Below are positions 6,749-26,700 of a stretch of DNA of 64,000 nucleotides, one piece after another. The DNA comes from a virus. Lineage: Duplodnaviria > Heunggongvirae > Uroviricota > Caudoviricetes. Position numbers and translations under genes: made by a program. The stretch lies in the IMG/VR virus record IMGVR_UViG_2648501802_000002; one strand, 5' to 3'. The notes beneath the pieces were generated by a model that saw only the letters and a program-made list of their open reading frames with translations, made no database searches and was not told where the DNA came from. The first letter of the stretch is position 1, and the number at the start of each line of letters is the position of its first letter.

Positions 6749-7640
6749 TATGCAAGCCTCACAATATAATTAAATGCGATGTTTTTAACGGTGTTTTCCG
6801 AGTTACCAGCAGCGTTAACGGTGATGGTGTGTCCATGTGAACCAATCGCAACAGAGTGCGTATGAGCGCCAATATCAACTGTATGTGCATGCGCCCCTGC
6901 ACTTGCAGCGGTGCCTGATACTGAGTGGGTGTGTGCACCAGAAGAAGGCACAGTTCCATTCCCCACCACAGTGCCGCTTGATGAGCCATCAAGCCAGTCG
7001 AAATTCATACCGCCACCATCTGGTCTCCTTAATGGAACGGTATGAGTATGTGCGCCAGCACTATTTGCAGTACCAGATACATTGTGGGTATGTGCACCTG
7101 TGTTATTCGTTGATTTAGTACCGTAATCAAACGAAGATGTGGTTTTCGTACCCAAATCCGTATTGGATGCGCTGGCGCTGTGGGTGTGCGATTTAATGCC
7201 ATCCTGTTCCAGAGACAATACGTCCCGACCACTGGCGGGTTTGCCCTTGATTGTCCAGCCACGCATATCCGGGATCACGCCTGACGGATAAGCGGCTGCA
7301 AGTTTCGGGTATGCAGATTTGTCAAAAGTCTGTCCCTGCATCAGGGCGTAACCAGACGGCACAGTATCTGATGGCCACGGATGCGGAACACCAACAGGAA
7401 GGACCTCAATATCCCCGGAACCATCAAACGAAACGTTATTAATTTTACGGGCTGTTTTCAGCTTTGTAGCCGTTGAGGCATTGCCGGACAGCTCACCAGA
7501 AATGCCACCAACAACTGTTAGATCACCAGTTATTGTGCCGCCTGAACTTTCCAGTTTTTTAGCAACATCACTCTTAATAGAGTCGATTTCTTTTTTTCAG
7601 ATTAGTTATATCTGCTGGTATCGTTGTCACTGTTGCCATA
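6748..7640 (-). pseudogene. Side tail fibre C-terminal (receptor-binding) gene interrupted by a +1 frameshift in an A7 tract
   Basis: ATG near 7638-7640 with AAGGA Shine-Dalgarno; reads [16 protein letters not shown] then hits a stop. The long frame (..[23 protein letters not shown]...[15 protein letters not shown]...GAHTHSV...[11 protein letters not shown], lambda Stf-like C-terminus) opens at the homopolymer (plus-strand T7 at about 7594-7600). A6 would give one ORF of about 297 aa. Confidence 0.65.
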
Positions 7641-7812
7641 TTAATTCCTTACGCCCATTCCCGCAGCGGTTGTTCTAATTGAACTTCAAAACCATCAAAC
7701 ATTTGTTGTTTCAAACTGTTGTTTAAAATACGAACATTAACGAAGAAGCCATCATTTTTAATCACTGTTGGTTCTTCGTTCTCGCCGTTTGGTATTTCGG
7801 TATATGTAACAC

Positions 7813-9240
7813 CTACAACATCAAGAAGAATGTTGTTTTGCAGCTCTTCATTATCGTGGTGCCGAGTTCTCTTAAACCAAGGTATTGGATAACAGCAAGG
7901 ACGCTTGTTTTGGACAGAATATCGCGACCGACTGACGTTAAGTCAGTCTGAGAAACAGTGTCTGTACCGGTAAAGTACGGCAGTTTATTTGCGCCTGTAG
8001 CAAGACCAGCAAGCGCGGTTAAAGTTGCATCCAGAGGCTGTTTGCCTGCCAGCGCATTTGTCATTGTTGTCGCAAAGTTCGGGTCATTACCAAGTGCTGC
8101 GGCAAGCTCATTCAGGGTATCAAGAGCTTCTGGTGATGAACCAACCAATGCGGATATGGCAGCTCTTACATAAGCAGTCGTAGCAATCTGCGTATTATTT
8201 GTGCCCTGCGCAGCCGTAGGCGCAGTAGGGACTCCCGTTAATGCAGGGCTTGCCAAAGGCGCTTTGAGGGCTAGGGCATTGTTGATAGTTGTGCTGAAAT
8301 TCGGGTCGTTATTGATCGCAGCAGCTATTTCTTTAAGCGTATCCAGTGTGCCAGGTGCACCGTTGATAAGTGCCGTTATAGCTGACTTAACAAAGGCTGT
8401 ATTTGCGATCTGCGTGCTATTTGTACCTTGCGCTGCCGTCGGCGCGGTTGGCGTTCCTGTCAGACTCGGGCTTTCTATTGGCGCTTTGGTATCAGCAAGA
8501 CCTTTTACAGACTTAACGGCTTTAGGGGTAGCCGCCATTGTTTCGCTGTCGCTGTTAGTTTCGCTACTGAGCTGAACTAATCCCTTTTGCGTTGTGCTTG
8601 CATCCTGTGCCGTATACTTGCTTTTCGCCAGATCGTAGGCTTTTTTAGCTGCCAGCGAACTTGCAGCAACATCACTTCTGCTACTGGTTACAGAGTCTGA
8701 AATATCAATGCCGATCGTGCGGTTAATACGCTCGGATGTATCAATCATCTCCTGGGTAATGGCTGATACGCCAGCAGGGATATTCACCGTACAAACAAGC
8801 AGCTCTCCATCTCCTAACTGATATGAATCGGTATAGGTTCTGGCAACAAATTCAGCCGCATGAATATGTGACGCGGTATTAACCTGATAGGTATCCTCTC
8901 CAAGGAGGTATCTTCCCTTCAGCACAATTGCATATTTCTTGCCTTCACTAAGTGCAAGAGAAATATCCTTACGGTGCCGAATAGTTACCTGGTAGAATTC
9001 ACCAATATCCACTGACGCAGCGCCAGCAGTTTTATCACCATCCACTGAGGTGATTAACAGGTTCATACCACCGCCAGGCTTCGGCAGGAAACCGGCATAA
9101 AACCCAGGATCAACAATTCCCCTGAATTTTCGGTTTAGCGCGGCTGACAGATATGGTTCGTGGTATTGCACATCAGCCACCAGAGCCAGTGACTCGGGCG
9201 ATGGGTAAGTAACTGATGTAACAACTGTAACGTCATTCAT
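7813..9240 (-). CDS. Tail fibre protein, N-terminal/constant part (Stf / P1 S-like)
   Basis: ORF track 7813..9327; start set at internal MNDVTVVTSV. Contains TTQKGLVQLSSETNSDSETMAATPKAVKSV and repeated SP(A/S)LTG(T/V)PTAPTAAQGTN fibre repeats. Ends abruptly after YLGLRELGTT. Confidence 0.8.
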   Translation of the reverse strand: MNDVTVVTSVTYPSPESLALVADVQYHEPYLSAALNRKFRGIVDPGFYAGFLPKPGGGMNLLITSVDGDKTAGAASVDIGEFYQVTIRHRKDISLALSEGKKYAIVLKGRYLLGEDTYQVNTASHIHAAEFVARTYTDSYQLGDGELLVCTVNIPAGVSAITQEMIDTSERINRTIGIDISDSVTSSRSDVAASSLAAKKAYDLAKSKYTAQDASTTQKGLVQLSSETNSDSETMAATPKAVKSVKGLADTKAPIESPSLTGTPTAPTAAQGTNSTQIANTAFVKSAITALINGAPGTLDTLKEIAAAINNDPNFSTTINNALALKAPLASPALTGVPTAPTAAQGTNNTQIATTAYVRAAISALVGSSPEALDTLNELAAALGNDPNFATTMTNALAGKQPLDATLTALAGLATGANKLPYFTGTDTVSQTDLTSVGRDILSKTSVLAVIQYLGLRELGTTIMKSCKTTFFLML

Positions 9241-9251
9241 CAAGCATATCC

Positions 9252-9686
9252 TTATGCTATAGTCGTGTTGATGGCCATAACTGCGGTATATGTTTTTCCC
9301 ACATACAGCGAGTCTTCCTGAACACAAATAATTGCGATGGGCTTATTCTCGTTATCCAGAACAACCAGAGTGTTGAATGGATAGTTTTTCCCTTCCTGCA
9401 ACTGGCTTTGATCAAGGTCCATTCGGACAGTAATTATCCCGCCAGAGTAGGTTGGGACGAGGTTGATGGTGCAAAATTGACTGGTCAGTTCTGCCAACTC
9501 GAAAGTCTTTGGCAGTTCTCCAATGTCATAAGTACCATCTTCATTTTTGGTAACCAGCGAACTGGTGCCGAAAACGGCCTTGCTGATTAAAAATCGAGAG
9601 CCTTTGTTAATGGACGATTCAGCGCGTCGCTGATAGTAATAATCCAACAACTGACTCTTATAGAGATTTGTTGAGACGTCAGACAT
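9252..9686 (-). CDS. Tail/baseplate-associated protein (P1 R-like position)
   Basis: ORF track 144 aa; directly upstream of the tail fibre gene in the same operon. Confidence 0.45.
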   Translation of the reverse strand: MSDVSTNLYKSQLLDYYYQRRAESSINKGSRFLISKAVFGTSSLVTKNEDGTYDIGELPKTFELAELTSQFCTINLVPTYSGGIITVRMDLDQSQLQEGKNYPFNTLVVLDNENKPIAIICVQEDSLYVGKTYTAVMAINTTIA

Positions 9687-9764
9687 GATTTTCCCTAATC
9701 AATGTTGTGAAGCCTCATTGTAAGAGAAGTAACTTGTCACCCCGCCCTGCGGACGGGGTAATTG

Positions 9765-10604
9765 TCAGGCATCGCTATCCAGCAGCAAATCATCTGCGCG
9801 GGAGCGATCAAACGTAGGCGTTGCTTTCACAATAGTGCCGCCCGGCGTTGCAGTGATCGGGGCACTAATCGACGTAACTCCGGCAAGCGAAGTTGTATCC
9901 GAAGTTTCAAACCAGCAGTACGCTTTTTCGGTATCAGAAATCTCGTTCAAAGTGATCATGTCGGCCTGTTCATTTACAACAACCGACAAATAGAGCGTAA
10001 GCCCATCAAACACTATATGCAGTGGCAGTAGAGGCTTTACGAACTGATTAAACTTTCTGAGAATTTCTTCTGTAATTGCGGACTGATCTATCGTGCCAGT
10101 AATACCCATTGTCCTGGCCAGGTCGTTTATGGGAATACTGATCATCCCTCTGGAAGTCAGAAACATCTCGCCGAATGTGCCGCCAGTAGTCTCCAGTGTG
10201 CTTTCTGGTATTAGAACTGTGCCATAGGGATGACGCTCAAGGTCCACCGGTGCATATATCGGATCCCATAAAACAGAAATACCGTTAAATTCGCGGTAAA
10301 TTGTCTGGTTTATAGGACGTTCAGTTCCCTTAAAGTGGATCTCATCAAGCCGCTGTTGTAACAACATCGGAACGGAAGATGAGTTCGAGGTTCTGATAGT
10401 AAAGAACTGGCCAAGTTCATTTGTCCTGGTCTCCAGATCCTCCTTGCTCATGGAGAAAATAGACTTCCGGTTGGTAATTCGCTCCAACCATGGGTCAACA
10501 AAGGTGTCCATCATTGACTGAACCAAATCAGCCAATGATTTATAGAGCAATGACTTTTGCTTAGCTGATGTAAGCCGGTTATTAAACCAGGAACGCTGCA
10601 TCAC
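9765..10604 (-). CDS. Tail/baseplate protein
   Basis: ORF track 279 aa; operon context with overlapping stop/start. Confidence 0.45.
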   Translation of the reverse strand: MMQRSWFNNRLTSAKQKSLLYKSLADLVQSMMDTFVDPWLERITNRKSIFSMSKEDLETRTNELGQFFTIRTSNSSSVPMLLQQRLDEIHFKGTERPINQTIYREFNGISVLWDPIYAPVDLERHPYGTVLIPESTLETTGGTFGEMFLTSRGMISIPINDLARTMGITGTIDQSAITEEILRKFNQFVKPLLPLHIVFDGLTLYLSVVVNEQADMITLNEISDTEKAYCWFETSDTTSLAGVTSISAPITATPGGTIVKATPTFDRSRADDLLLDSDA

Positions 10605-12034
10605 TCCTCCTCATACGAAATATTAAAGGTGGAGCTTTCTGTATCCAGATAAACGAAATCGTAAAAGCCGTTGGACTCATTCCACTCGACAAATTCCAGA
10701 TAAAAGTCGCGGAAATAACCCAGCGTTTCGATAAACGCCCAAACGTCTTTTTTCTTAATCAGGATGTACTTTCCGACGCGGTTCGGATCAAAGAAAGTTG
10801 AGTCGCGCCCAAATTTTGTTTCCAGTGCCGACTTCAGCTCATCGGTCACATTCTCAATGGTCAGGCTTGCCGATATCCGTCCGGTGATGGTTATCTTAAA
10901 TGGTAGTTTTCTGACCTCTTTATAAGAGAATTTCTTGTTCAGTTCATTCGGTACCTTCTTAAAGGCAGTCAGGATCATTTCTTCAAGCTCTGACTGGCTT
11001 TTATTTGGATGCCATCCTGAAATAAATATCTTATTGATATTCTGAACATTATAAGCACCATCTAATTTCTCTTGCTGGCCTTCGCCCCATGCCTTTACCC
11101 AGGACAGCCCCGGGATGTTACGAACCAGAAAATACGTATAGTCCCCGCCCCATACGACCTGATCATCATAGGCAAGGTAATATTGTGCACGGTTACGTGT
11201 GATCTCCGTTGTTTCAGCATCGGTACCTGCGGTTATAGGTGTCGTTGTCTTAACTGAAATCAAATTAGCTAAATCAGCCGCAGAATCGACAGGCGTCAGG
11301 TTTTGGCCAGCAACCAGGGTTATATCGCCGTTGGTGCACCATACCTTAAGCGTAATTGTCGAACCTTCTGGCGGTATTTGCCCAATTAGCCCATCGCCGA
11401 ATCGAACCCCCAACTGCTCGGATGGTTTATAAAACTCAACGTAGACCTGGCTTTTACTACCGGCTAACCGGAACATAGTGCTGGAAGACCACTGCGTGGT
11501 CTTCCCATCGGTTGTCACGAATACTTCCAGCTTATAGCAGACAGCAGTAAGAGCCTTTGATAACACGACTTCCAGAAATTCTTTGGCTGCCGTAACGGTA
11601 TATGTCACCTCCTGGATTTCCAACTGTGCCACTTCTACCGTACCGGTGCCGTCAACCAACCTGCATACATCCATAGTCATGTAAGGGTACTGGTCGTCAG
11701 ATATTAAAGGCATGTTTTTGGGGATTACCGCTGGGGCATCTTCACTTGTGGCGGTGATCTCAATCATCCCCGATGACGGTGTTGGCTTGGTACCAACATA
11801 ACTGTTCGTTTCTGCCGCAGCCAGGATAGAGGAACGCCGCGTCGCGGTCGATATAAAGCCTTCAGCCAGCGCCGCATCGGCATACTGAAAGCACCTGTAG
11901 ACAATCTGGGTAATAAACAATGTCAGCATCGAGACAAATTGAGAGCCGACAAACTTCGACCAGAATGAATCTTTCTCGACAAGCTCTTCAAACTCTGCAC
12001 GAATACTGTCTTTAGTCGGTGTTGTTTTACTCAT
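10601..12034 (-). CDS. Baseplate protein (J/gp47-like; P1 BplA-like position)
   Basis: ORF track 477 aa; size and position within a myovirus-type baseplate cluster. Confidence 0.45.
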   Translation of the reverse strand: MSKTTPTKDSIRAEFEELVEKDSFWSKFVGSQFVSMLTLFITQIVYRCFQYADAALAEGFISTATRRSSILAAAETNSYVGTKPTPSSGMIEITATSEDAPAVIPKNMPLISDDQYPYMTMDVCRLVDGTGTVEVAQLEIQEVTYTVTAAKEFLEVVLSKALTAVCYKLEVFVTTDGKTTQWSSSTMFRLAGSKSQVYVEFYKPSEQLGVRFGDGLIGQIPPEGSTITLKVWCTNGDITLVAGQNLTPVDSAADLANLISVKTTTPITAGTDAETTEITRNRAQYYLAYDDQVVWGGDYTYFLVRNIPGLSWVKAWGEGQQEKLDGAYNVQNINKIFISGWHPNKSQSELEEMILTAFKKVPNELNKKFSYKEVRKLPFKITITGRISASLTIENVTDELKSALETKFGRDSTFFDPNRVGKYILIKKKDVWAFIETLGYFRDFYLEFVEWNESNGFYDFVYLDTESSTFNISYEEE

Positions 12035-12390
12035 AGCACCACGTCCTGTGTGATAGTTATATCCCTGATACGAATGGATATTTTCAACTTATCAAAAGCA
12101 TCTCCCTCGGCTACTGACAAGCCAGAAATCGGTATGTCAGGTAAATCTACCGTCAGTTTTTGCAACAGCATTGCCTCAACCGCAATTTGAACATGCGACA
12201 AGTTGGTCGGTTCGTGTTTAAACTGCGGTAAAACATTGCCCCATGACGGATCTCCGTATACCTCACCCTGATAAGTGTTTAGCCACTCATATAAACGAGC
12301 GCCCCAGGCCTCCTCCTGGGACTCATACGTTTTTACGCCGGATAACTCCAGCGTCAGCAAAGGATCAATTTCGTTATTGTTGGCCATCAA
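12031..12390 (-). CDS. Small baseplate assembly protein (gp25/W-like position)
   Basis: ORF track 119 aa; translationally coupled to its neighbours. Confidence 0.4.
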   Translation of the reverse strand: MMANNNEIDPLLTLELSGVKTYESQEEAWGARLYEWLNTYQGEVYGDPSWGNVLPQFKHEPTNLSHVQIAVEAMLLQKLTVDLPDIPISGLSVAEGDAFDKLKISIRIRDITITQDVVL

Positions 12391-15300
12391 TCAACTCTCG
12401 CGTAGTCATTCATCAACGGATCATCAATTGACAGTGGCACCGTGCGCATAACGCCCGGTTGAGGCGTGCTGACCTTTACGACAGTTCCCTGGCCTTTCGC
12501 CGAGTCTTTAGTGTGCTCTTCAATCCTGGCAAGCAATGAGGTCATCTGCGCAAACAGCCGCTTCGTTTCACCATCAAGTGAAACGGTATTATCAGCCAAC
12601 TGCATTGTCGGCTTGGCACCAGAGCCGCCAAGGTCACTAATAACCTGTCCGTCTATCTGCATACGACCGGTTGGTTGCTGCAAATCGTTGGCGGCAGTCG
12701 TCACCTGGGACGTGGAGGCTGGTTGAGGAGAGTTATTTGAGCGCATTCCCCGGGCATTAATGAGTTTGTCATACAGCCCATCAATCCCCATTTGTGCACC
12801 GAGTTGGTCAAAGTAACTTGAGTTGTTTGCTACCGGACGTGCCTCTTCAACTGGCATAGGTGTATCAACATACACATTGCCAGCAGCCGTTGCGGTTCCC
12901 CTTCCTCGTGCACGTTCTTCGAGGGTTCCCTGAACGACTTCCCGACGCATCCCCCGACCATTCATGAATTTGTTGACCAGATCGTTAACGCCAACAGCAT
13001 TACCGATTTTGTCTACCAAACCGCCTTTCTCAAACGGGCTATCACCAGGGGTAAACGCCAGACCAGTAGACTGATCGATAACGGCGTTATCAGGCAGTGG
13101 TCCCCTCACTCCATATTGCGCCCCACCCTGTGCTCCTGCTCCAGGTGTATAGATTTCACCACCTAAATAGCGAGCACGATGAGTATTGACCTTGATCGCG
13201 TACTCACGGTTTTCTTTCGATAAGTCACCTGTGCCTTTTTTCCACTTATTGATAGTGCCAAACCCAGCATTATATGCAGTGATGGCCTCGTTTAAGTCTC
13301 CATTGGCTTGCTTCAGATACTTGCTCATGAGAAGAGCCGCAGCTTCTGCCGATTTCACAGGATCAAATGCATCCTGTTCCGATATCCCTGTCTCTTTACG
13401 AGCAATACTCGTGAACTGGAACATCCCGAGTGCGCCACCACTTAACTTTCCATCTGGTGATCTTGTAAGCGGAGACTTTGCGTTAGGATCCCCTCCTGAT
13501 TCAGTTGCCGCAATCGAGTAAAGAGTGCCTTCAGGAAGGCCATATTTATTCTCTAGTTCAGCAAAATACGGAGCCAGCTTATCCAGATTTGCCTTACCTT
13601 CAGCGCCAAGGCTTCCGACTTTTACATCTAAGTTGCCATTGTTGTAGGTATCCGCAGCTTTCTGAATGTCATTCCTAGTGCCAGTAGTATTAAGCGACGA
13701 TGATGATGAGCTATTTTGACCAATAGCATTATCAATTTTCTGCAACGCTCGATTGCCCGTTTCTACGGCATTTGCATTGATAATCTGATTGGCAGTTTCT
13801 TTAACTGTTTTATTGCTATCTTTCGCCGTCTCTAGGGATGCATTTACAACACGAGTGACAATATTAGCCTTTTTAGGGGTATATTCAGTCTTAGGAGCAT
13901 TGTCCTCCTGACTTTCTTTAGCTGGTGTTTTTAATTCAGGTGTAACCTCTTTCGCATCCGCTTTGTTGACTAGCTTTGATGCAACCCAGGCCACAGGGGT
14001 GCTCTGAACAGCGGCATCGGCAACCTTACCAGGAAGCTCTTTTGCGGCATTCCATAGATTACTACCAGCCTCTTTAATGTATTTTCCCGGGTTCTTAATG
14101 AAATCAATTGCACTATCAATTGCATCACTGAAAACCTTTTTCAGGTTATCGACAGTAAAGAAGTCTTTGATGGCGTCTAATTTTTCGTTCAGACTCTTGG
14201 TTGTGTCACTGAACCAGGCTGAAATAGCATCGCCAATCTTGGCTGTGTAATCGTTGAATGTTGTGGATATGGTGTCACCAAGGTTAGAAATATATGTTTC
14301 TAAATTGGTAATCCCACTATCAATGGCCTGGGCAATACTTTCCGTCGAAAATGATTGCAACATATTGCCGATATCCTCAAATCCAAGTGATTTGAGAACG
14401 CCACCAATGGCATTGCTAATACCAGATACCAGTCCTCCCATATCGAGAACGTTAGCCAGTGTATAAGCCGCTTTTTGCTGAAAAGATGGATCTTCCCCAT
14501 CCTTAAGCCCAAAGGTCCGACGTTGTGCTTCTGTATCATTCCAACCGGTTACCGCATCATAGATACCTCCAGCCACCGTGCCGACTAGCGGAATTGCGCG
14601 TAAAGCCCCCTTTGCAAAAGCCTTAACACCTAGTTTCTCCAATCCCTTAGTTGCAAGTTTTCCGGCACCGCGAGTAGCCAATTCGCCAGCTTCTTTGGCA
14701 GCAGCTTTTTTCCCACCAAAGCCCAATAAGCTTGCAACTTTTTTTATACCTAAAGCGCCTAGTGCCATCGAGCCAACTTTCTTTAGTGCCCCACGGCAAA
14801 AAATAAGGGAAGCAATACCACCGGCCCCCTTCCCTAACAGGCTAAATAATTTGGACAGCAAGCCGCCCTTCTTTTTCCCGGTGTTTTTGGCTATCTGATC
14901 AAGGGCGCTGAGAATCTTGTCATTGCCCTCTTTAATTTCGCTGGTCTGATCCTGAAGTTCCTGAACCGTCCGTTTTTGGGTGTTAACCTGAACGACATCG
15001 GCACTACTTTGCGATTTACGCCTAAAAAAACCTTTTCTACGGCTGTTATCGTCATTGCCACGAATCACATCGGCAATTGACTTTCTGGCACCATTAAGCG
15101 AACCGCCAACTTCTTTTGATATTCCGCCAAGCTCCTTTCCTGCTGCCCACAATGGACCAGCAACGGCATAACCTAAAGCATCGACGGCACGAGTCTCTGA
15201 AGGGTTACCTATGCCTTCAGCTACTTTTGACAGTTTTTTTAATAAACCCGATTCAGCATTTAGACGCTCATCATCCTCTTTGCGCCTAGCTTTTTCAGCA

Positions 15301-15815
15301 CGTTCAGCACGGGCATCTTCCGCTGCGGCCTTACTCCCTGACTTCCCAATAAAACGACCACGCGCATCGCGTTGGTTTTGGCTTTTTTGCGCACCGCCTT
15401 TTTGACCGAACATTTCGCGAGCGTGTTCGGCTGCTTCGGTCCGTTGTGCCTTTACATCCTCTGGTATAGCCTTCCTGCGTCGTTTTTTACCCTTTGGTGT
15501 GGTTGATTTGGCCCGCTGTTCCTGTTGAGCAACATCTTCCTGAACTACACGAGAAACGTCCCCTAAGTTAAGCCGTTTCATTGCCTCAACAATAGGGTCC
15601 ACTGATGGCGCATTGGCCACAAAGTCTGGCCGTGAATTTTCGATTGTGCGATTTAATGCCGACACACTGCGAGAGACAGGATCAACAGTTGCAACGCGCC
15701 CCCCTTTCAAATCTTCAACAGCTTCCCGGATACCTGCAAGCTCTTCCAGCTCTTTTGCGCTGGCGGTTTCAACTGTCCTTATAACATCGTCAATGTTGGC
15801 GTTTTTTCGTTCCAT
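12387..15815 (-). CDS. Large tail/injection protein with lytic transglycosylase (SLT) domain; P1 Sit-like
   Basis: ORF track 1142 aa; SLT motif YSIAATESGGDPNAKS...GALGMFQFTS...AYNAGFG; Gly/Ala/Lys-rich extended regions. Size matches P1 Sit (about 1140 aa) from memory. Confidence 0.7.
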   Translation of the reverse strand: MERKNANIDDVIRTVETASAKELEELAGIREAVEDLKGGRVATVDPVSRSVSALNRTIENSRPDFVANAPSVDPIVEAMKRLNLGDVSRVVQEDVAQQEQRAKSTTPKGKKRRRKAIPEDVKAQRTEAAEHAREMFGQKGGAQKSQNQRDARGRFIGKSGSKAAAEDARAERAEKARRKEDDERLNAESGLLKKLSKVAEGIGNPSETRAVDALGYAVAGPLWAAGKELGGISKEVGGSLNGARKSIADVIRGNDDNSRRKGFFRRKSQSSADVVQVNTQKRTVQELQDQTSEIKEGNDKILSALDQIAKNTGKKKGGLLSKLFSLLGKGAGGIASLIFCRGALKKVGSMALGALGIKKVASLLGFGGKKAAAKEAGELATRGAGKLATKGLEKLGVKAFAKGALRAIPLVGTVAGGIYDAVTGWNDTEAQRRTFGLKDGEDPSFQQKAAYTLANVLDMGGLVSGISNAIGGVLKSLGFEDIGNMLQSFSTESIAQAIDSGITNLETYISNLGDTISTTFNDYTAKIGDAISAWFSDTTKSLNEKLDAIKDFFTVDNLKKVFSDAIDSAIDFIKNPGKYIKEAGSNLWNAAKELPGKVADAAVQSTPVAWVASKLVNKADAKEVTPELKTPAKESQEDNAPKTEYTPKKANIVTRVVNASLETAKDSNKTVKETANQIINANAVETGNRALQKIDNAIGQNSSSSSSLNTTGTRNDIQKAADTYNNGNLDVKVGSLGAEGKANLDKLAPYFAELENKYGLPEGTLYSIAATESGGDPNAKSPLTRSPDGKLSGGALGMFQFTSIARKETGISEQDAFDPVKSAEAAALLMSKYLKQANGDLNEAITAYNAGFGTINKWKKGTGDLSKENREYAIKVNTHRARYLGGEIYTPGAGAQGGAQYGVRGPLPDNAVIDQSTGLAFTPGDSPFEKGGLVDKIGNAVGVNDLVNKFMNGRGMRREVVQGTLEERARGRGTATAAGNVYVDTPMPVEEARPVANNSSYFDQLGAQMGIDGLYDKLINARGMRSNNSPQPASTSQVTTAANDLQQPTGRMQIDGQVISDLGGSGAKPTMQLADNTVSLDGETKRLFAQMTSLLARIEEHTKDSAKGQGTVVKVSTPQPGVMRTVPLSIDDPLMNDYARVD

Positions 15816-15896
15816 GATCTTATCGCCTACCGTTTCGGTTTAAGTTTTTCTTCCAGTTTCTCCAACAGGAAAAACGCATAGGATTCAGTAAGCCTT

Positions 15897-16637
15897 TCAG
15901 CGTCCTGAATCGGTATACCCCCATACAAAACCAGGTTGGACACTAAGGTCTGATAGCTTTTCAATCCCCACCTGTGGAATGAAGTCGGTAGCCCGAAAGG
16001 GCACCCACAGACGGGTATATGCACCCTCTGTGGACTCCTTTTTATCCTGATTTGGGCATTTATGCGGCGGGAGACGAAGACGCATTTCACCTTTATCGAT
16101 GTAGCACGGCAAACCATGTTCGAGCTTTTCATGAGCCAGTCGGATGTGTGCCGCCAGCTTCATAAATTCAGTATCAATGGCCATCCGTTTAATCGTTTCA
16201 TAACGACGCTCAGCCTGATCTTCACGAGTACCGCTAACATCGTTATAAAGCTCACACTGATAAGCGAATTCCCAAAAACGCAAATCAACGATCGCTTCTT
16301 TGAATTCCGCGTCGTCTTCAGGTGGCAATGCTGCACGGCGCATCTCCAGCATTTCCATTGCCCAACCATCAAGCGGCACGATACGCCATTGATAAGGCAC
16401 TCCCTCTACAGACACCTCAATATCGTCAATGAACGGTTCCGCTTCCAGGACCTGGATATCTTCAGCCAGGGCATTCATATCGCAATCGTAATAATGCTCT
16501 TTACCGCAATGTTTACAGGTGTAGGTGAATGTCTCGACCGGTGTTTCACGGGAGCCGGTAAATATCCACCATAACGCGGTAATCCGGTCCTGCGCCGTCC
16601 ATGTCAGGGGATCATGTTTCGCGGGTTCAGCCAGCAA
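15897..16637 (-). CDS. Hypothetical protein with Cys-rich zinc-ribbon-like motif
   Basis: ORF track 246 aa (TYTCKHCGKEHYYDCD); first gene of the non-lambdoid block, just past the truncated stf. Confidence 0.5.
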   Translation of the reverse strand: MLAEPAKHDPLTWTAQDRITALWWIFTGSRETPVETFTYTCKHCGKEHYYDCDMNALAEDIQVLEAEPFIDDIEVSVEGVPYQWRIVPLDGWAMEMLEMRRAALPPEDDAEFKEAIVDLRFWEFAYQCELYNDVSGTREDQAERRYETIKRMAIDTEFMKLAAHIRLAHEKLEHGLPCYIDKGEMRLRLPPHKCPNQDKKESTEGAYTRLWVPFRATDFIPQVGIEKLSDLSVQPGFVWGYTDSGR

Positions 16638-16642
16638 GGCTT

Positions 16643-17123
16643 TTAAATACGCGCTGCCGCCTGTGCGCTGTTAGCTGCATTCGTTTCTGAGGTTTTCGCC
16701 GCGTTCTTTCGATGATGCCGCTGCAGTTTCGGATTTCTTTGCCGCCGCTGCGCTCTGAGAGGCGGCTTCAGCGTTGCGTGCCGCTTCTTCCACCATTTCC
16801 TCAAAACGACGCAATGCCTCCGGCATGACATCATCTTCCGTCATGGCACCGAGAAAATCATTCAGCGTACCTGGTCTGGAACCTTCATAGACGGTAATGG
16901 TCCCGGCATGTGAAGGCGGAAAACCTTCAACCAGCAGGGTGACGCTGTACTGACCATACTCAACATCCATGCTGTAACGCCCGGCTTCATCCGGATTTTC
17001 AGAGGCCACCGTGTTCACCAGTACCGTGGTGCTGTTACGCTTTGCCTTCAGTTGAATAGTGCAGTTCTGTATTGGTTTTCCCGCACCATCTTTCAGCACA
17101 CCTGAGATTTTTACTGCTGCCAT
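16643..17123 (-). pseudogene. stf: Truncated/frameshifted 5' fragment of lambda-type side tail fibre gene stf
   Basis: MAAVKISGVLKDGAGKPIQNCTIQLKAKRNSTTVLVNTV...GRYSMDVEYGQYSV matches the lambda Stf N-terminus as I recall it. The frame ends after about 150 aa, and an overlapping frame (16643..16834) carries further Stf-like AAKTSETNAA text; no fibre shaft or C-terminus follows. Confidence 0.6.
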
Positions 17124-17186
17124 ATCCACTCCACAAAAAAGCCGCCTGAACCGGCGGGCTGTCATAACACTGTGTTACCTGGCTAA

Positions 17187-17782
17187 TCAGAACTTATAAC
17201 CGACACCACCGATGAAACCGTCAGTGCGCCAGTCGCCACTGCCGGAGCCTTCATAAGCAATATCAATGGCCACGGATTCGGTCGGGTTAAACTGCACGCC
17301 AGCTCCCCACGCCAGAGACGTGTTGCTGTGGCGATCGTCATCACTTCCGGTCAGCACATCGTGCGTTTTCCCCTTGTTGTCAGTTACGCGGAGATAATCC
17401 CCGGAGAACGTCGAAACACGGCTGTAAGCCACACCTGCCATCGCATAAGCACTGAACCATTCATTCACGCGTACAGATGGCCCCGCCATCATGCTGAACC
17501 AGCGGTTACGCACTGAATCTTCATGCCAGCGGGTATCGCTGTAATGCGTTTTTTGCTCATCTTTGGCATTGGCATAACTGAATGACGTCACCAGCCCCAG
17601 CGTGTCCGTAAATTCATAACGGTATTTCACGTTAATGCCCTTCAGGTCATCACTGCCTGGCATATCAGTATGGGCCCTGAAGATACCCGGCGCTTAGTGT
17701 GGACTGATGCTCTGCTGCGCTCGCTGGCGTACCAGCGGCAACCAGCCAGACTACTGCGGACAGAATAACAGCACATAATTTA
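17187..17782 (-). pseudogene. lom: Lom/Ail-family outer-membrane protein gene with a frameshift between signal peptide and mature part
   Basis: Mature part (ORF track 17187..17663: GSDDLKGINVKYRYEFTDTLGLVTSFSY...GVGYKF) is Lom-like. The signal peptide MRKLCAVILSAVVWLVAAGTPASAAEHQSTLSAGYL is in another frame starting near 17782 and stops at about 17670. Confidence 0.6.
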
Positions 17783-17789
17783 CGCATAA

Positions 17790-20700
17790 TTACCTCTCGC
17801 TTTTCTGCAATAAAAAAGGCGTCATTTCTGACGCCCGTATTGGGGTTATAAAATTCAGCTGATACTGATGCCTGCGGTGGCTTTCTTCATCACCACAACC
17901 AGCAAATCGCTGATACTTGCTGTGGGATACCAGCCATTTACCCACCATGCTGATACCGAAAACTCCAGTGTCATTACCACTGCCTGCAGGCATATCAATA
18001 ACACCCGTGTATATCAGAGTATTATCCAGAGCCGTTCGGTTATAAATTTCAGCCCCCGTTTTTTCTCCTATCAGACGGCATGACGAATAAGTATCGCTAT
18101 TTCTCCGTTCATCGTCTGGCACCGCTGAAAGCCACCGCCGGATAACAATTTGCCGGTCAAACGGCTGATCGTCATAAACCCTGACGGTAATGGTCCCTGA
18201 TGGCCACCGTTCCGGTGCACGGGAGTCACGGGGGAAAGCTTTGCCCACTGTTTTAACGAGATCGCCTTCAATCTGGTTCGCGGACAGTTTTCCCAGAACC
18301 CGGCAGTTCTCGTTAATCGTGACGTTGTTGAGCGTCCCGGAGTTCGCATTCACGTTACCGCTGATATCGGCATTTTTTGCCGTCAGCCGCCCGTCCGGTG
18401 TCAGGGAAAATGCCGGAGGATTACCGCCGCTGGTAATGGTGGGAGCCGTCAGATATTTCAGGAACACTTCATTCATAAATATCTGATCGCCCTGACCAAC
18501 AAACATCGGCTTTGTGTTGCCATTCGCAGGATTAATCATCGCAATCCTGTCCGCCGCCAGCAGCACCTGACTCTGCATACCGTCAGGGGTATTCTCAATA
18601 CCGGCACCAATACCCGCGATATAAAGGCGTCCGTCCTGCATCTGCTGCAGCTTCACAGCCCACATGCTGTTCAGGTTATTATTTGTATCAACCTGAACCT
18701 TCTGTATCTGCTGAATTGCCGCACTCTGGTCTTCCAGTTTCTTATTGACGGTCTGCGTGATTTCATTGCTGACATCCGTAATGGACGTCCTGATTTCAGC
18801 CAGGTCAGGCGCAAGCTGACCGTTATCAATCTGCGTCCACAGCTCCTGAGCCAGATGGCTTTTCCCTATCTCTCCTTTGAAAAAATCCAGATAGCCGGAT
18901 GCATCATCACTCGGCTGGCCAACAGCCTCCACAAATGCCGATTTGCCAACGGTGTTCACACTGCGGATGTAAAAATAATAATCATGGCCCGGTTTGATAT
19001 TGATACTGGCGGCTATCCAGTACAGCGCCGTGCCAAGATAGCGGGCTGTGGTTTCAACCTGCCTGATATCGGTAATCCGCTTTTCCGAGAACCAGAACTC
19101 AAACTGTACCGTCGGGTCATAAATGGCAAGATGCGGCGTGGCGGTTATCTGAAAATAGCCCGGCGTCAGCTCAATCCTCGACGGTGCTGCCGGTGCGGCA
19201 ATCCGGAACGATACCGACGCCGCATCGCCCTGCTGCCCCCACGCATTTACCGCCCGGACTGTCAGCCTGTAGTTCCCCAGCGCCAGTTGCGTGAAGCGGT
19301 ATGTGGTTTCCGTCGTCCGGGCCGTGCTGACCAGCCGCTCACTGCCGTCGTCCGCTGTTACGGTCAGACGGAGCAGGAAGCTCACGCCCTTCACCACCTT
19401 CGGTGTGTCCCATCGCGCCAGCACCTGATATTCCCCGCTGTCTGCAGTGACTTCTGCGGTCAGGTGCTGCACCGCTGGCGGCGTGACACCATTCACCGTG
19501 CCACTCTGTTCGCCGTCAAAGTGCGCCCCGTTATCCACGATGGCCTCTTTTTCCGGCACATGCTGCACGGCGGTGATGGCATACGTGCCGTCGTCGTTCT
19601 CACGGATACTCACGCAGCGGAACAGGCGCTGGCGCAGCGTCGGCAGCTTCAGCCCCCATACGCTGTATTCAGCAACACCCTCAGGAACACGGCTCACTTT
19701 TACCTTCACGCCGTCGTTGACGGACTGAACCTCCACGCTGACCGGATTGCCACTTCCGTCAACCAGGCTTATCAGCGTGGTACCGGAGGATGGCAGCGTG
19801 ATTTCACGGTCGAGCGTCAGCGTCCGGGTCTGGCTGTTCACCGCCAGCACACGACCACCGGTGCTGATACCGGCATAGTCATCATCGCAGATTTCAATAA
19901 CATCGCCCGGTACATGGCGAAGCCCTTCTGCGCCGACGCTGAAATCCACGGTCTGCGTCTCCAGCAGCTCCGTTTTAATCAGCCACAGCCCGGCGCGGTG
20001 TGCCTGCCCCCGGCTGGTACAGCCAAAGGCATCCATCTTCGTAACATTACGACCGTAACGGGCAATGGCCTGCGTATCTTCAACAAGCTCTGTCGCCGTC
20101 TCCCAGCCGTTGTCCGGGTCAATCCAGTTCACCTCAACGGCATTATGGCGGTCTTTCAGGGCGCTGAAGCTGTAGCGGAACGGCGCGCCATCATCCGGCA
20201 TCACCACATTACTGCGGTTATAGGTCCACGCCTTATCCGACGGTCGGTCCTGCACGAACGTCAGCGTCTGCCCGTTCCATACCGGCATACAGCGCATCGC
20301 CGAGCAGAAATCACTGAGAACGTCCCACGCCTTGCGCTGTGTGGTCAGGTACGCATTACAGGTGATGCGCGGCTCCGTGCCGCCAAAGCCGTCCGGCACT
20401 GACTGGTCGCAGTACTGGCCGATGACATACAGCGCCCATTTGTCCACATCCGCCGCACCAAGACGTTTCCCCATGCCGTAGCGCGGATGGGTCAGCATAT
20501 CCCACAGACACCAGGCCATGTTGTTGCTGTATGCTGGCTTAAACGTTCCGTCCCAGATACCGCTGTATTGTCGCGTCTGCGGGTTATAGTTCGACGGCAC
20601 CTGCAGAATGCGCCCGCGAAGATGATAATTACGACTCACCTGCTGGCTGCCGAACTGCTCCGAGTCCACCTGTACGCCGACCAGTGCCGTGTTCGGGTAG

Positions 20701-21332
20701 CACTGTTTCACATCGATGATTTCGGTGTATGACGACCAGAGCGTTTTGTTCTGCAGCTGGTCTGTGGTGCTGTCCGGCGTCATCCTGCGCATCCGGATAT
20801 TAAACGGGCGCGGCGGCAGGTTATCCACCACCACCGAGGCCAGATACTGCGAGGTGGTTTTGCCTTTAATGGTGATGTCTTTTTCCGTCACCCAGCCACC
20901 GTTACGCTGTATCTGAACCAGCAGGCGGACTTCCGACGGATTCCGGTCCCCCTTTGAGGTGGTTTCCACCAGTGCCTGCACACCGAAGGTAAAGCGCAGA
21001 CGGTCGATGTTTGCAGACGTGATGGTCCGGGTAATCGGCGTGTCGTACTTCACTTCCGTACCCAGCACCGTCTCGGAGCCGGAGGATTCAAACCCCTCCG
21101 GCGGTGTCTGCTCCTGCTCACCGGCACGGAACACCACCGTGACACCGGAGATGTTGGTATTCCCCTCAGTGTCCAGCACCGGCGTACTGTTCAGCAGCAC
21201 GCTTTTTAATCCATCCACCGGACCTTCAACCGGCCCTTCGCTGATGGCATCGATCACACTCAGCAACTGCGTGGACTTCAGGTTGTCCTTCGCTTCGCGC
21301 GGGGTATGCCCCTTACTGCTTCCTTTACTCAT
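17790..21332 (-). CDS. J: Tail tip host-specificity protein J (central tail fibre)
   Basis: ORF track 1180 aa; follows I/K/L/M in lambda order; size and position. Confidence 0.85.
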
Positions 21333-21392
21333 TCCTCACGCTCCATAAATGACAAAACCGCCCGCAGGCGGTTTCACATAAAACATTTTGCA

Positions 21393-22064
21393 TCAGCGAC
21401 CAATCACCACAACCTGACCACCGTCCCCTTCGTCTGCCGTGCTGATCTCCTGAGAAACCACGCGTGACCCCACGCGCATTTCCCCGTACAGAACAGGCAG
21501 AACATTGCCCTGGGCAACCATGTTATCCAGTGAGGAGAAATAGGTGTTCTGCTTACCGTTATCCGTTGTCTGTGTACGGGGAGTTCTGGCTTTCGGTGCC
21601 AGCATCTGCGCCACACCACCGAGGACCATACTGGCACCGAGAGAAAACAGGATGCCGGTCATACCACCGGCCCCAATGGCTGCCCCCCATGCTGCAAGGG
21701 TGGCTCCGGCGGTAAAGAATGATCCGGCAATGGCGGCAGCCCCCAGGACAATCTGGAATACGCCACCTGACTTGGCCCCGGCGACTCTGGGAACAATATG
21801 AATCACAGCGCCATCAGGCAGAGTCTCATGTAACTGCGCCGTTAACCCGGACGTGCTGACGTCCCGCCCGGCAATCCGTACCTGATACCAGCCGTCGCTC
21901 AGTTTCTGACGAAACGCCGGGAGCTGTGTGGCCAGTGCCCGGATGGCTTCAGCCCCCGTTTTCACACGAAGGTCGATGCGGCGACCAAATCGTTGTAAAT
22001 CCCCGTAAAGGCAGATGCGCGCCATGCCCGGTGACGCCAGAGGGAGTGTGTGCGTCGCTGCCAT
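21393..22064 (-). CDS. I: Tail assembly protein I
   Basis: ORF track 223 aa; MAATHTLPLASPGMARICLYGDLQRFGRRIDLRVKTGAEAIRAL matches lambda I as I recall it; Gly-rich hydrophobic middle. Confidence 0.85.
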   Translation of the reverse strand: MAATHTLPLASPGMARICLYGDLQRFGRRIDLRVKTGAEAIRALATQLPAFRQKLSDGWYQVRIAGRDVSTSGLTAQLHETLPDGAVIHIVPRVAGAKSGGVFQIVLGAAAIAGSFFTAGATLAAWGAAIGAGGMTGILFSLGASMVLGGVAQMLAPKARTPRTQTTDNGKQNTYFSSLDNMVAQGNVLPVLYGEMRVGSRVVSQEISTADEGDGGQVVVIGR

Positions 22065-22706
22065 TTGTCGGTGTACCTCTCTCGTTTGCTCAGTTGTTCA
22101 GGAATATGGTGCAGCAGCTCACCGTCACCACAGTAAATGGCGGCATGATTCGGCACCGATGAACCAAAACAGCACAGCAGCACATCGCCCGGCTGCGCCG
22201 CTGACAACGGCACCTGATACAGCCCTGTGGCCTCCAGATTATCCAGATAGAGATTCTGACCGTGACGCCACCAGTCATCCCCGCGATGAAAATCCGGCAT
22301 CTCAATCCCCGCCAGATGATAAGCATCCCGGAACAGCGTGTAACAGTCCGTCACCCCCGTGCTCAAAGCGCCGCCCGGTGAGATGCGGCACACAGCGGAA
22401 CTTATGAATCGCCCCCCGGCAGACCAGCCACCACGGCAAATCACTCTGCACCTGCAGCCGCCGGTCAGCCTCACTCAGCCAGGGCAGACCACCGGGGTGG
22501 CTGTGGACCAGCGCCACAATCTCACCCTGCATTTCTGCCTGCAGCCAGTCCTCCGGAGCCATCCGGAAATAATCCTCCGGCTCACCGGAAATATTCACGC
22601 CGGGAAAATATCTTTCCCCCTCCGGCGTGCTTACCACGAAGCCGCACGACTCCGCTGGCGCACATCGCCGGGCGTGCGCCAGAATCGCTGATTCTGTCTG
22701 TGTCAT
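21962..22706 (-). pseudogene. K: Tail assembly protein K (JAB/MPN plus NlpC/P60) split by a frameshift at a C5/G5 homopolymer
   Basis: Two overlapping ORFs (22302..22706 and 21962..22474) together reconstitute lambda-like K: HSHPGG JAB motif in the first, GVTDCYTLFRDAYHLAG...CCFGSSVPNHAAIY in the second. Frames switch at CACGGGGGTGAC (plus-strand CCCCC at about 22355-22359). Confidence 0.7.
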
Positions 22707-22711
22707 GGGAT

Positions 22712-23410
22712 TTACTGCGAAAGTTTGTTAATGGAAAGGAAGCCGCCAAAGTTGCCGACGTTATTGCGAAACTTACAGCCACTCAGGCATTTGCTGCATT
22801 TATCCTTCGTGATATCGGACGTCGGCTGGTCATATTCATCCGCGACCGCCGGACCGCTATAACCGCACTCATCGCCGCGATAGGTCCAGGTGCAGGTGTT
22901 GGCCAGCATGATACGTCCCGGAAAAACAGCGCCATCCGTTTCAGTCGGCGTGGACAGTACAAAAGAGGCACTGACCGCGCTCAGTTCGCTGCACTGCTCG
23001 ATGCGCCAGCGGCTGATCACCTCCTGCTCCGGATCGGCTTCGCTGTTTCCGTTGACGAAGTTCACCGCATCCAGAAAGCGGGCGTAAACCTTACGCCGGA
23101 CCACCGTTCCGCCGACCAGACTCTGCAGATCTTCCGCCATCCCGGTGATCATGCCGTGCAGGTTAGAGACCGTCAGTGTCGGACGGGCAGCACTGCCCTT
23201 GCCGTTCATCTCAAATCCACTCCCCTGAATGGGATAGGCCTGATACTGCCGACTCTGCCAGGTGACAGACTCACCTTTTTCGTTCTGCTCATTACAGAAA
23301 AAGTAGCGATCCCCGTCTACCTCTGTCAGGTCGATTTCCCAGAGCACCACGCTGGCAGACTGCTCCGCACGAATGCATTCATTCAGCGTTTCCTGTTGTA
23401 TGTCCTGCAT
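22712..23410 (-). CDS. L: Minor tail protein L
   Basis: ORF track 232 aa; lambda gene order M-L-K-I-J. Confidence 0.8.
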   Translation of the reverse strand: MQDIQQETLNECIRAEQSASVVLWEIDLTEVDGDRYFFCNEQNEKGESVTWQSRQYQAYPIQGSGFEMNGKGSAARPTLTVSNLHGMITGMAEDLQSLVGGTVVRRKVYARFLDAVNFVNGNSEADPEQEVISRWRIEQCSELSAVSASFVLSTPTETDGAVFPGRIMLANTCTWTYRGDECGYSGPAVADEYDQPTSDITKDKCSKCLSGCKFRNNVGNFGGFLSINKLSQ

Positions 23411-23748
23411 CAGATCACCACTTCGTCAAACTGACACGAAAAATCGGTATAGGTGATATGTTCTGTCGCTGACCACGTTCGACACACCACTCTGATTTTT
23501 CTGTTAATACCCGGCGGGCGCCAAAAAAAAGATTTATAGCCTTCATGCCGGGCTAAAAATTTTTCAAATGAATCACGTTCATTCGCCTCAACTTTGAAAT
23601 CACAGGTGAAAACGCGCAGAGAATGATTAAGTCCATTTGGACTTCGTTGCTCATAACCATCGCCAAATCTTACAGTTTTTATCGATGGTTTATTTTCTGT
23701 TTTCATTCCATCCTCTGGTAACCAGTGAAATTCTTCCGTATTAGCCAC
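23410..23748 (-). CDS. M: Minor tail protein M
   Basis: ORF track 112 aa; [17 protein letters not shown] and FDEVVI resemble lambda M. Confidence 0.8.
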
Positions 23749-26700
23749 TTAACATTCCCCCATCACGTCGCATATTTAACAGATTGCCCTGCACCCGCTG
23801 ATCAACCATCCCCATAAGTGCTTTTATTGCCTGAGGGCCAATCTCTCCATTCTGGCCGTCATTTTGAATAGTGATTTGGTATACAGGGGCATAGGTAATA
23901 TCTCCGCCTCCATTACCACTTTTACTATTAATAGCTCTGACACCAAGAGAACCATCGGAAGTTCGTGTTAATGGCATAATGGCTTCCGGACCAGCCTCAC
24001 CAAAAACACCAGCCCCTCTTGCAAAAGCAAAAAATTGCGGGGAATCATAAATACCGTTCGAATACGTGTTCAATGACGGAGACTCATAAACACCGCCCTT
24101 TGCATTCGGAATAAATTTACTAATAGCACTCCCGATAGTTCCTAAAATCCCCCCAGAAGAACTGTTACTAATGCTGTCGAAAATCCCAGTAATTGAAGCC
24201 TTTAATGCTATTCGACTAAGATCCGAAATCACGGAAGTAGCGAAAGAACGAAAATTTGCCTTGCCTGTCGTGACAAAATCACCCAGCGCATCGGTCATTC
24301 CATCAAACATCTGAGTCGTGGTTGATTTTATCTGCTCACTGATATCCTTAGTGTCATCCAGCCAGTTATTGAATCCCTGGGAGGCACCACTAACCCAGTC
24401 TCCTGCCTGAATATCGAGCTGCTCGTTTTTCTGTCTGACAATTTCTTTTTCTCGTTCCAGAGCATCATTCAGAGCCTGCATTTTCTCCTGAAAAACATGA
24501 TTTGACATCCCACGGGATTTATCTGCATAGTCACGTTCAAGTTGCAGACGCTGATTGTTATATTCACGTTCAATCCGCAGTAATTCCTGCTGGCGTTGCT
24601 GATTTTTATCGCCAACCCCATAACCAGCAATCTGAATATCATACCCCTGTTGACGATTATCAATCGAAGCCTGCAATGAATCACGCCATGCAGCTATTTC
24701 GGCGGATTCCTTGATTAGCCTGTTATTTTTTTCAATCGCAACATTTTTCTCCATCAACGCGGTTATTTCTTCCAGGTGTAAGAGAAGCGATTTCTGATCC
24801 TGGGTTAATTTCGATGACGGTCGTGACTCCAGGTCGGCAATCTGCTGACGCCACTTAACCAGTTCCTGTTCAGAGGAACTTAATTTAACGGTTAATTCAG
24901 TTTGTGAACTTAGTAACGCATTCTGTTGATTCAGATGATCAATCATTCGTTGGGCAGCATCATCCGAATAACCTTTCGCCTTTGGTTGCTTTGGATCTTT
25001 ATAACGCTCATTTATTTGAGCGATAAAATTATTATATTCTTCCTTTGAATACTGACTCTTTAGCTTTTCCAGTTTTGCAAGTTCACTAGCTCTCTGCTGC
25101 TCCCGGGTCTGATATTGTTTTGAAAAGGCATCTGCTCTCTGTCTGAGTTCAATTCCTTCCTGTTGTCGCTTGTTGTAATCGTTTATTGATGAATTTAGGA
25201 CGTCCTGAGCAATTTTTTCTGCTTGAAGTACGCCCAATTGCTGCTTTAATCGTGCCAGCCTTTTATTTTGAGCTCCGCCATCTCCAATGCCACCTAACCC
25301 GAAAACTCCGGGTCGGGTATTTTTTTCTATTTCATCAATTTGACGGAGAACATCTGAGATTTTTTGATCAAGGGAGGCCTCACGGCCAATGTCCAGCATG
25401 GAATCCCATGCCCATTTTGCGGAGTCTGCGACAGCTTTCCATGCAGTCTCAAGATAACCAAGATTTTCTTTAATCTGGTTGGTGCGCTGGATCATTGAGG
25501 ATGAGTATTCTTCTGTCGCAATGCGGGCGGCCTCCTGCTGGTTCCCTTCATCCTGTAGCGCCTTAATCTGGTTATAAGTCGCAAGTGTCAGAAAATGGTA
25601 CTGATCATTAAGTTTTGATATGGCACTGACAGGATCCTTTGCAATTTCATTGAAGTCATTAACCAGTTGTTCGGTTGATATTCCTGTTACTTCGCTCGTT
25701 TTTACTATCGCTGTCGTCACTTGCTCCAGCGAACTGCTCGCTACCTTTCCCGAACGCACAAGCTGATTTAATACTGCCGCCGCAGCACCAGTTGTCGAAT
25801 CAGCCGCATTCCCGGCACGTTGAGCTATATCGCCCAATTGCCCGCTGGTTGTCCCCAACTGATTTCCGGTAAGAATAAGAGATTTATTAAATTCGTCCTG
25901 CTCCTGAGAGCCTTTATAGTAAGCCAGTCCTAAGACCCCAACGGCTGCTGCGGCCAGGGTAAAAGGATTAATTAATCCCAGCACATAAGAACCTACACCT
26001 TTGATCGCCGGGCCAATCCCACCGAACATATCTTTTAGCTGGCCGCCCTGCTGCATTAACACCATAAATGGCGACTGACCAGTGGACAACCCAACAACAA
26101 TATCCGTCATTTGTGCAGGCAACATGCGCATAGCAAAAGCCGTTTGTTTTGCCGACATTCCGGTTTTGCTTAATTGTGATTGAGTAACCTCAAGCTCACT
26201 CCGCATAGCACGAAGTTTTCCAGAAAGCTCCTCATACATTTCAGGAGAAAGCATCCCCTTAGCTTTTGCTTCATTGAGCTGTTTCTGTTGTTCTACCAGA
26301 CGATTAAAAGCAGTTCCGACAGGATCAAGTTGAGCAATCAGACGTTGCAAAGCAACAACCTGTTCATCATGCGCTTTTGCTGCTTCTCGCTCTGCCTGAG
26401 CCTCTCCGGTAAGCTCTCGCCGTGTTTCCTGTATTTTTCGGCTATAATTCTCAAACTGAGAACCATTTATTTTCCCGGATGCAAACGCAGCATTAAGTTC
26501 ATCATGCTGTTGTTCAAGATTTCTTAGCGCCGCAGCCAGAGGGTCGATCTTGTCCAGCATTCTTTGAAAGGCCTGAGCCTGCGCTTCCTGCTGGGCGGCA
26601 GCAAGTTTTCCGGCCTTCTCGGCTTCTCTCTGCGCTTGCGCAACCCCGCTCAATTCCTCTGTGGTTTCATTAAGTTTACGGACAAGAAATTCATATTCTT

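Follow-up and report, generated by a model that had tools for sequence, protein, structure and literature searches.

A blunt join between a P1-like phage-plasmid segment and a Rac-locus lambdoid prophage is most probably a contig-concatenation artefact

Among the questions raised by the 64,000-nt stretch of viral DNA analysed here (hereafter the window; IMG/VR record IMGVR_UViG_2648501802_000002), the one that concerns us relates to the origin of its tail genes. A first-pass annotation described, at 16600-17170, a module junction where a truncated lambda-type stf gene is fused to a P1-like block of Sit, baseplate and tail-fibre genes, giving a chimeric content of siphovirus and myovirus tail components. 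Is this mosaic a product of phage evolution or of sequence assembly?

At the locus itself, P1-like homology stops and lambdoid homology starts at one base, C16652, with an overlap of 1 nt (junction at 16652..16653, unstranded, from three-way alignment and BLAST endpoints), and an alignment against P1 and lambdoid genomes, which had been proposed as a way to place the breakpoint, thus sets the switch exactly there. Megablast searches with two queries (9000-22000 and 15600-17800) against 5,426 complete E. coli genomes were used to look at both sides: on the left, P1-like plasmids match up to 16652 with 97-98% identity (97-99.9% over all the plasmid and phage comparisons), and on the right lambdoid prophages match from 16652 with up to 99.6%. 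The join sets codon 157 of stf against codon 42 of pmgB, two non-homologous points, and both genes are destroyed by it. In the three-way alignment the two parents have no similarity around the breakpoint, which argues against an exchange of homologous tail-fibre modules. A repeat search of 15000-18500 revealed neither an IS end, a target duplication, a significant direct or inverted repeat nor an att site at the junction, and the only matches around the join were of 12-22 nt, at the level of chance. A site-specific or transpositional integration of P1 at 16652 finds no support, given the lack of an IS end or target-site duplication and an overlap of only 1 nt. Cin/Pin-mediated recombination at this position was rejected, as the sole cix-like site in the window (7867-7892) lies 8.8 kb away and is partnerless. 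The GC profile shows a modest step from 0.48 to 0.52, which is compatible with two sources and does not separate the hypotheses. Megablast found no record spanning the junction in the 5,426 complete E. coli genomes, 72,556 plasmids (PLSDB) and 50,697 phages (INPHARED), and a 40-mer and a 22-mer of the junction have no exact match in GTDB representative genomes, IMG/VR or JGI metagenome contigs. The frameshifted Stf (from two possible starts), the aberrant J and Sit have no exact protein match on record either.

The left part of the window (1..16652, minus strand, extending past the left end) is a P1-like segment of the Punavirus/IncY phage-plasmid type, which contains ddrA, darA, the gene of a DarA-N protein, lydAB (lydB and the holin), a group II intron remnant and a plus-strand acetyltransferase gene, together with tfa, tail-fibre parts (S), R, 16, bplA, pmgA, sit and a shortened pmgB (pmgB'). 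The segment is 97-98% identical to many E. coli P1-like plasmids and 99.3-99.5% identical to the plasmid contig JAAQMK010000018.1, and the Pfam families Phage_P1_Gp16, Phage_P1_tail_fiber_R, LydB and DarA are found on its relatives. The 246-aa protein, the 1142-aa SLT protein and the baseplate-like set that had been noticed beside stf are pmgB', Sit and then pmgA, bplA, 16, R and S. The window's 246-aa gene is PmgB by the annotation of phages P1, SJ46 and phi456, and the remnant of this P1 morphogenetic gene (15897..16652, minus strand; ORF at 15897-16637) has lost the first 42 of 293 codons to the junction: in the VL7S7 plasmid pmgB encodes 293 aa (L001:10913-11794), and the match with the window ends inside the gene, at L001:11668. 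The sit gene (12387..15815, minus strand) encodes 1142 aa with a Pfam SLT lytic transglycosylase domain (E=3e-25) and is Sit by annotation in P1-type phages. It is followed by the P1 block of baseplate and tail-fibre attachment genes (9252..12390), with pmgA (12031-12387), bplA (10601-12034, with Pfam Baseplate_J and Gp6-like_1st), gene 16 (9765-10601) and R (9252-9686), all on the minus strand. This colinear pmgB-sit-pmgA-bplA-16-R-S block, at high identity to P1-like elements, is a P1 late region, and the P1-type nature of the genes downstream of stf is borne out by homology searches, which match P1-like plasmids and phages up to 16652. An intact 293-aa pmgB continuing into the upstream P1 genes is absent from the window. 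Exact copies of the BplA protein are indexed in 49 collection blocks of public assemblies, all on P1-like contigs of plasmid size with none exceeding 200 kb, and in the eight of eight places shown it sits in the normal P1-like gene order, beside an intact 293-aa pmgB.

The P1 block itself has another blunt breakpoint, at 7858..7859 (unstranded). Here the three closest plasmids (JAAQMK010000018.1, L015:14177-15763) have 1587 nt, comprising part of gene S and the beginning of the following ORF, that the window lacks, and gene S breaks off near codon 460. A one-base insertion (T) at 7597, 261 nt from this point, frameshifts the 296-aa ORF of the fibre C-terminus, in a stretch otherwise identical to the relatives. 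This second breakpoint may be another contig join or a collapse, or a real deletion. A perfect 26-bp crossover-like site of the Din-invertase type, TTCTCTTAAACCAAGGTATTGGATAA, which we take to resemble cix/hix/gix, is present at 7867-7892, at the boundary between the constant and variable parts of gene S and 8 nt from the breakpoint. Neither a partner for this site nor a cin gene was found in the window or at the JAAQMK010000018.1 locus (L015), and Cin/Pin-mediated recombination at 7858/7859 is unsupported, the crossover-like site being a lone one. Elsewhere in the block, domains D1-D4 of a group II intron are detected at 4789-5052 on the plus strand (Rfam RF02001, 95.5 bits; RF01998, 46.8 bits), in an ORF-poor gap of about 0.9 kb between the P1 holin and acetyltransferase genes that is unannotated in related plasmids; no intron-encoded protein accompanies these domains, and the intron is therefore either ORF-less or truncated. 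The acetyltransferase gene itself (5604-6167, plus strand), a hexapeptide-repeat "serine acetyltransferase" opposed to the tail-fibre operon, appears to be a cargo or moron gene, frequent in this sublineage of P1-like elements. P1 itself carries cin and the invertible C segment at this position.

The rest of the window (16652..64000) is a lambdoid prophage of the Rac locus, with the late genes on the minus strand and recE-intR on the plus strand, whose content comprises stf', lom, J, tail, head and terminase genes, trkG, lysis and replication genes, racR, recE/recT, xisR and intR. It is colinear, with 99.9-100% identity, with positions 849374-898058 of the FDAARGOS_1279 chromosome, between uspF/pinR and ttcA, and the two differ by 24 substitutions over 47 kb. 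In related strains, the Rac-type prophage of this lineage encodes pinR just past stf. In FDAARGOS_1279 the tolA-like prophage gene is also interrupted by an IS3-family element (L007:27509-28841), which is absent at 43783-43787 of the window and in ST2747. Two expected components of a Rac-type prophage were detected with Rfam on the minus strand: the RalA antitoxin sRNA (62266-62444, 212 bits), opposite ralR, and the sRNA STnc100 (43857-44043).

The three genes closest to the join on this side are all damaged. Their order on the minus strand is J (21332-17790), lom (17787-17187) and stf, which starts at the ATG at 17123 (MAAVKISGVLKDG...). The stf' remnant (16653..17123, minus strand) retains 157 codons from the start of a lambdoid side-tail-fibre gene that encodes 791 aa when complete, and its N-terminus corresponds to the Pfam family PF08400, "Prophage tail fibre N-terminal" (E=1.3e-68, residues 3-132), in agreement with the lambda Stf N-terminus recognised by the first-pass annotation. 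The stop reported after about 150 codons is the TAA at 16671-16673, after 150 codons, and is due to a run at 16707-16709 that is one T longer than its counterpart in E. coli 042, ST2747 and FDAARGOS_1279, shifting the frame after ...AAASSK. The overlapping frame with further Stf-like text is the true Stf frame, which can be followed for 18 codons more (KNAAKTSETNAANSAQAAA) in the ORF 16834-16643 before foreign DNA begins after codon 157. Hence stf is indeed truncated, by two separate lesions and not by the single one first described, the 1-nt frameshift and then the junction 55 nt beyond. Stf is left without a complete ORF, and with 157 of 791 codons kept it lacks the shaft and the C-terminal receptor-binding part, as had been noticed. 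Codon 157 is the entry into a low-complexity Ala/Ser/Thr repeat, and the intact 791-aa stf (WP_000741766.1) is present in E. coli 042, FDAARGOS_1279 and ST2747. The lom gene (17187..17787, minus strand) is frameshifted by an extra C at 17675-17677, its 158-aa open frame covering positions 42-199 only of the Pfam Ail_Lom profile, where the intact lom of relatives encodes 199 aa. The 3′ end of the tail-tip gene J (17790..21332, minus strand) is scrambled by indels at 17976-18141, which results in 1180 aa in the window versus 1159 aa in relatives. The segment formed by lom and the 5′ end of stf, with the 3′ end of J, occurs at four places in ST2747, which explains a contig break there.

All these lesions fall in an indel-dense zone of low-quality consensus that begins at the join (16652..18141, unstranded). 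Relative to FDAARGOS_1279, the 1490 nt of 16652-18141 have 11 single-base indels, versus 3 in the 45.9 kb of 18142-64000 (binomial p=1e-14). The positions of these indels also differ from the copy in the ST2747 record CP007394.1, which agrees with FDAARGOS_1279, indicating that the errors belong to the window. The P1 side is clean, with zero indels at 13.2-16.65 kb against three plasmids. Such a burst of indels is the pattern of tapering coverage at a contig end, and it is unexpected at a genuine junction sequenced at full depth. A natural pseudogenisation of stf was discarded, since its frameshift is just one of the 11 window-specific indels clustered at the join. The zone is made of multi-copy sequence, in which a true junction too could be left badly polished; the sister assembly CP007394.1, however, polished the same stretch cleanly.

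This sister assembly, the chromosome record CP007394.1 of E. coli ST2747, offers an independent view of the same locus. A local BLAST of window positions 22144-46021 (23.9 kb) against it gave 0 mismatches and 24 single-base indels, and this divergence by indels only indicates one strain that was sequenced and assembled on separate occasions by a method prone to indels. For the right-hand 20 kb of the window (44000-64000) CP007394.1 is the best match, at 100.0%, and the comparison of 16652-28245 shows 6 mismatches, all of them in the 1.5 kb beside the junction. On the P1-like side, window positions 1-1195 are 100% identical to positions 2141052-2139858 of this "chromosome". From sequence identity, the window most probably comes from one of the two companion records, CP007392 or CP007393. 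CP007394.1 does not reproduce the junction at 16652: it has undamaged copies of stf (791 aa), lom and J, which run on without a break to pinR/uspF. There is instead, at 2139858-2176945, about 37 kb of patchy P1-like DNA inside the Rac-locus prophage, with genes for a RepB-family initiator (repA), ParA/ParB, a Dam-family methylase (dmt), rdgC, a KilAC antirepressor/Icd (ant/icd), Ref, a head-processing protease (pro), a lysozyme (lyz) and an SSB, several of them "incomplete". On either side of this P1-like DNA lies one copy of a duplicated 6.1-kb stretch of lambdoid tail genes, equivalent to window positions 22144-28245 and rich in frameshifted pseudogenes: the tape-measure gene is present twice, both copies "frameshifted", together with fragments of L, K, ydaY and the tube gene. 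Both P1/lambdoid joins of CP007394.1 are blunt (window-equivalent 28245|P1 and P1(1195)|22144), and its lambdoid flanks lack 22 bases in the window-equivalent 22358-24607 and 12 in 26036-28016, being otherwise perfect. Two isogenic assemblies have thus given three different and mutually incompatible P1/prophage junctions, and the P1-like insert of CP007394.1, a public reference record, very probably results from misassembly.

The way in which these records were produced has been described. In 2014, Xavier et al. (PMC3983296) sequenced an ST2747 parent and two nitrofurantoin-resistant derivatives with PacBio RS II C2 chemistry, from a 3-10-kb library at about 28x coverage, and some 14 HGAP scaffolds were ordered by MapSolver into a "gapless chromosome". 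The resulting "chromosomes" CP007392-CP007394 measure 5,054,424, 4,998,910 and 5,090,326 bp, with no plasmid reported (PMC3983296). They differ by up to 91 kb, approximately one P1 plasmid, despite being isogenic. This procedure applies to the window if, as its sequence identity suggests, it comes from that project. In a later work on P1-like plasmids, P1-type DNA is listed "in the chromosome of E. coli ST2747 (CP007393.1)" (PMC6906374).

Altogether, the join at 16652 is most probably a contig-concatenation artefact, where a P1-plasmid contig and a chromosomal contig were abutted, and not the signature of a hybrid phage. This reading is supported by the blunt join, the error-dense flank, the conflict with the sister assembly, the absence of the junction elsewhere and the concatenation of scaffolds. 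ST2747 would carry a free P1-like phage-plasmid and a separate lambdoid prophage at the Rac locus, and its 28x PacBio C2/HGAP assembly would have broken in the tail region of the prophage, where the 3′ end of J, lom and the 5′ end of stf are multi-copy and are followed by the low-complexity repeat of stf. About 14 scaffolds, plasmid contigs included, would then have been ordered on a reference map and butted together without gaps, bringing the clean end of a P1 contig, within pmgB, against a ragged and poorly covered end of a chromosomal contig, within stf. We infer that this happened when the scaffolds were ordered rather than in HGAP itself. On this view stf, lom and J would owe their frameshifts to consensus errors, and no hybrid siphovirus/myovirus tail would be encoded. 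Consequently, the biological module junction with chimeric tail content put forward in the first-pass annotation is not supported, in view of the sister assembly, the indel density and the concatenation of scaffolds; among the three origins offered there, it is the assembly chimera that is favoured, and neither a genuine recombinant or decaying prophage nor two nested elements.

A quite unlikely alternative is a genuine cointegrate, in which a P1-like phage-plasmid entered the Rac-locus prophage of ST2747 through illegitimate (microhomology) recombination, with the destruction of stf and pmgB, leaving a defective composite in which siphovirus and myovirus tail genes coexist. A microhomology of 1 nt is also expected from end-joining or illegitimate recombination, and the presence of P1-like DNA in the same prophage of a second ST2747 assembly is mildly supportive. 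All three P1/prophage joins of the two assemblies fall, in fact, within 11.6 kb of one prophage, a non-random distribution that might point to a true association but is also accounted for by an assembly gap common to both and filled with unplaced contigs. P1 DNA has been reported as chromosomal in ST2747 CP007393.1 (PMC6906374), other E. coli chromosome records contain long P1-like segments (NZ_CP015229.1, NZ_CM169485.1 and NZ_CP080139.1), and the strains were selected on a DNA-damaging drug (PMC3983296). Against the cointegrate, the isogenic assembly has an intact stf and different joins, which would need different structures in isogenic strains; the duplicated and error-dense flanks, typical of unmerged contig ends, are left unexplained; and the scaffolds were concatenated by a published procedure, with a junction that is unique among the searched collections. 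Our literature search for chromosomally integrated P1-like elements gave nothing relevant. Nitrofurantoin is a DNA-damaging agent, and real rearrangements in the nitrofurantoin-resistant derivatives are conceivable. A true integration in ST2747, possibly provoked by this damage, with the differing joins of the sister assembly reflecting an ongoing rearrangement of a plasmid-prophage cointegrate, is nevertheless very unlikely.

It is more improbable still that HGAP joined, inside a contig, a rare chimeric molecule caught by a few reads, either real or formed in vitro, for instance a chimera from blunt ligation during SMRTbell preparation or an infrequent recombination product of induced lambdoid DNA with multicopy P1 DNA. 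A blunt join, with a low-quality stretch on one side only, is what few supporting reads would give, and from the known biology of both elements we infer that their copy number can rise after SOS induction. The published ordering of scaffolds, however, suffices as a cause, the lack of errors on the P1 side speaks for a contig end of normal coverage rather than for one lone read, and such a molecule would still be an artefact in practice, with the same consequence. The chance is negligible that the window represents an old decaying prophage, vertically inherited in the lineage, in which a P1-type fragment took the place of the distal fibre genes. In its favour, the two ORFs that meet at the join are pseudogenes, with frameshifts in lom and J as well; but each side matches functional elements at 99.5-100% identity, the "decay" amounts to single-base indels peculiar to the window and clustered within 1.5 kb, and the join is found in no related genome, with stf, lom and J intact in the other assembly of the same strain.

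With concatenation as the favoured explanation, the junction is best classed as not a real biological feature, and its value is that of a quality flag: at least one public "complete chromosome" of ST2747, and probably the source of the window too, has plasmid DNA in a prophage. The consequences are false pseudogenes (stf, lom, J and pmgB), false calls of "chromosomal P1" (as cited in PMC6906374) and false prophage boundaries, and scans for mosaic phages or for phage-plasmid integration should leave out the ST2747 records. If the integration were true, it would be a rare documented case of a P1-type plasmid-prophage integrated into another prophage. The P1-like segments in other chromosome records could be genuine integrations or similar assembly problems; in strain 06-00048, the same P1-like segment is found on both a 136-kb record and a chromosome record.

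Both halves of the window are ordinary members of known families, the P1-like IncY phage-plasmids and the Rac-locus lambdoid prophages. The P1-like phage-plasmids (pRHBSTW-00312_2, CP056621.1; the VL7S7 plasmid; JAAQMK010000018.1; and P1/SJ46) share the gene order of window positions 1-16652 with 97-99.5% identity. In these relatives, however, a complete 293-aa pmgB is followed by more P1 genes in a plasmid-sized replicon, whereas the window's pmgB is cut and abuts lambdoid DNA, and the closest plasmids also keep the 1587 nt of gene S that the window lacks. On the other side, prophages similar to that of the window are found in E. coli 042 and phage 2G7b, and the FDAARGOS_1279 prophage (NZ_CP069957.1, 845-898 kb) is colinear with it from stf codon 157 to intR. 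There, the 791-aa stf is followed by more fibre genes, tfa', pinR, ydfK, uspF and ompN, whereas the window has P1 DNA in place of all that lies beyond codon 157, and indels in stf, lom and J. CP007394.1 shares with the window the strain background, the P1-like plasmid DNA and the prophage, and it likewise has P1 DNA in the tail region with indel-dense flanks, but its joins lie at 28245 and 22144 and not at 16652, a different subset of the plasmid is present, and 6.1 kb of tail genes are duplicated. Natural mosaicism between the lambda stf/tfa and the P1, P2 and Mu S/U fibre genes proceeds by exchange inside homologous fibre segments, with the reading frames kept. The fibre and tfa genes of the window's P1 segment have 80-90% matches in thousands of E. 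coli chromosomes. The join at 16652 likewise involves the fibre loci of lambdoid and P1-type phages, but unlike natural fibre mosaicism it connects non-homologous points and destroys both frames.
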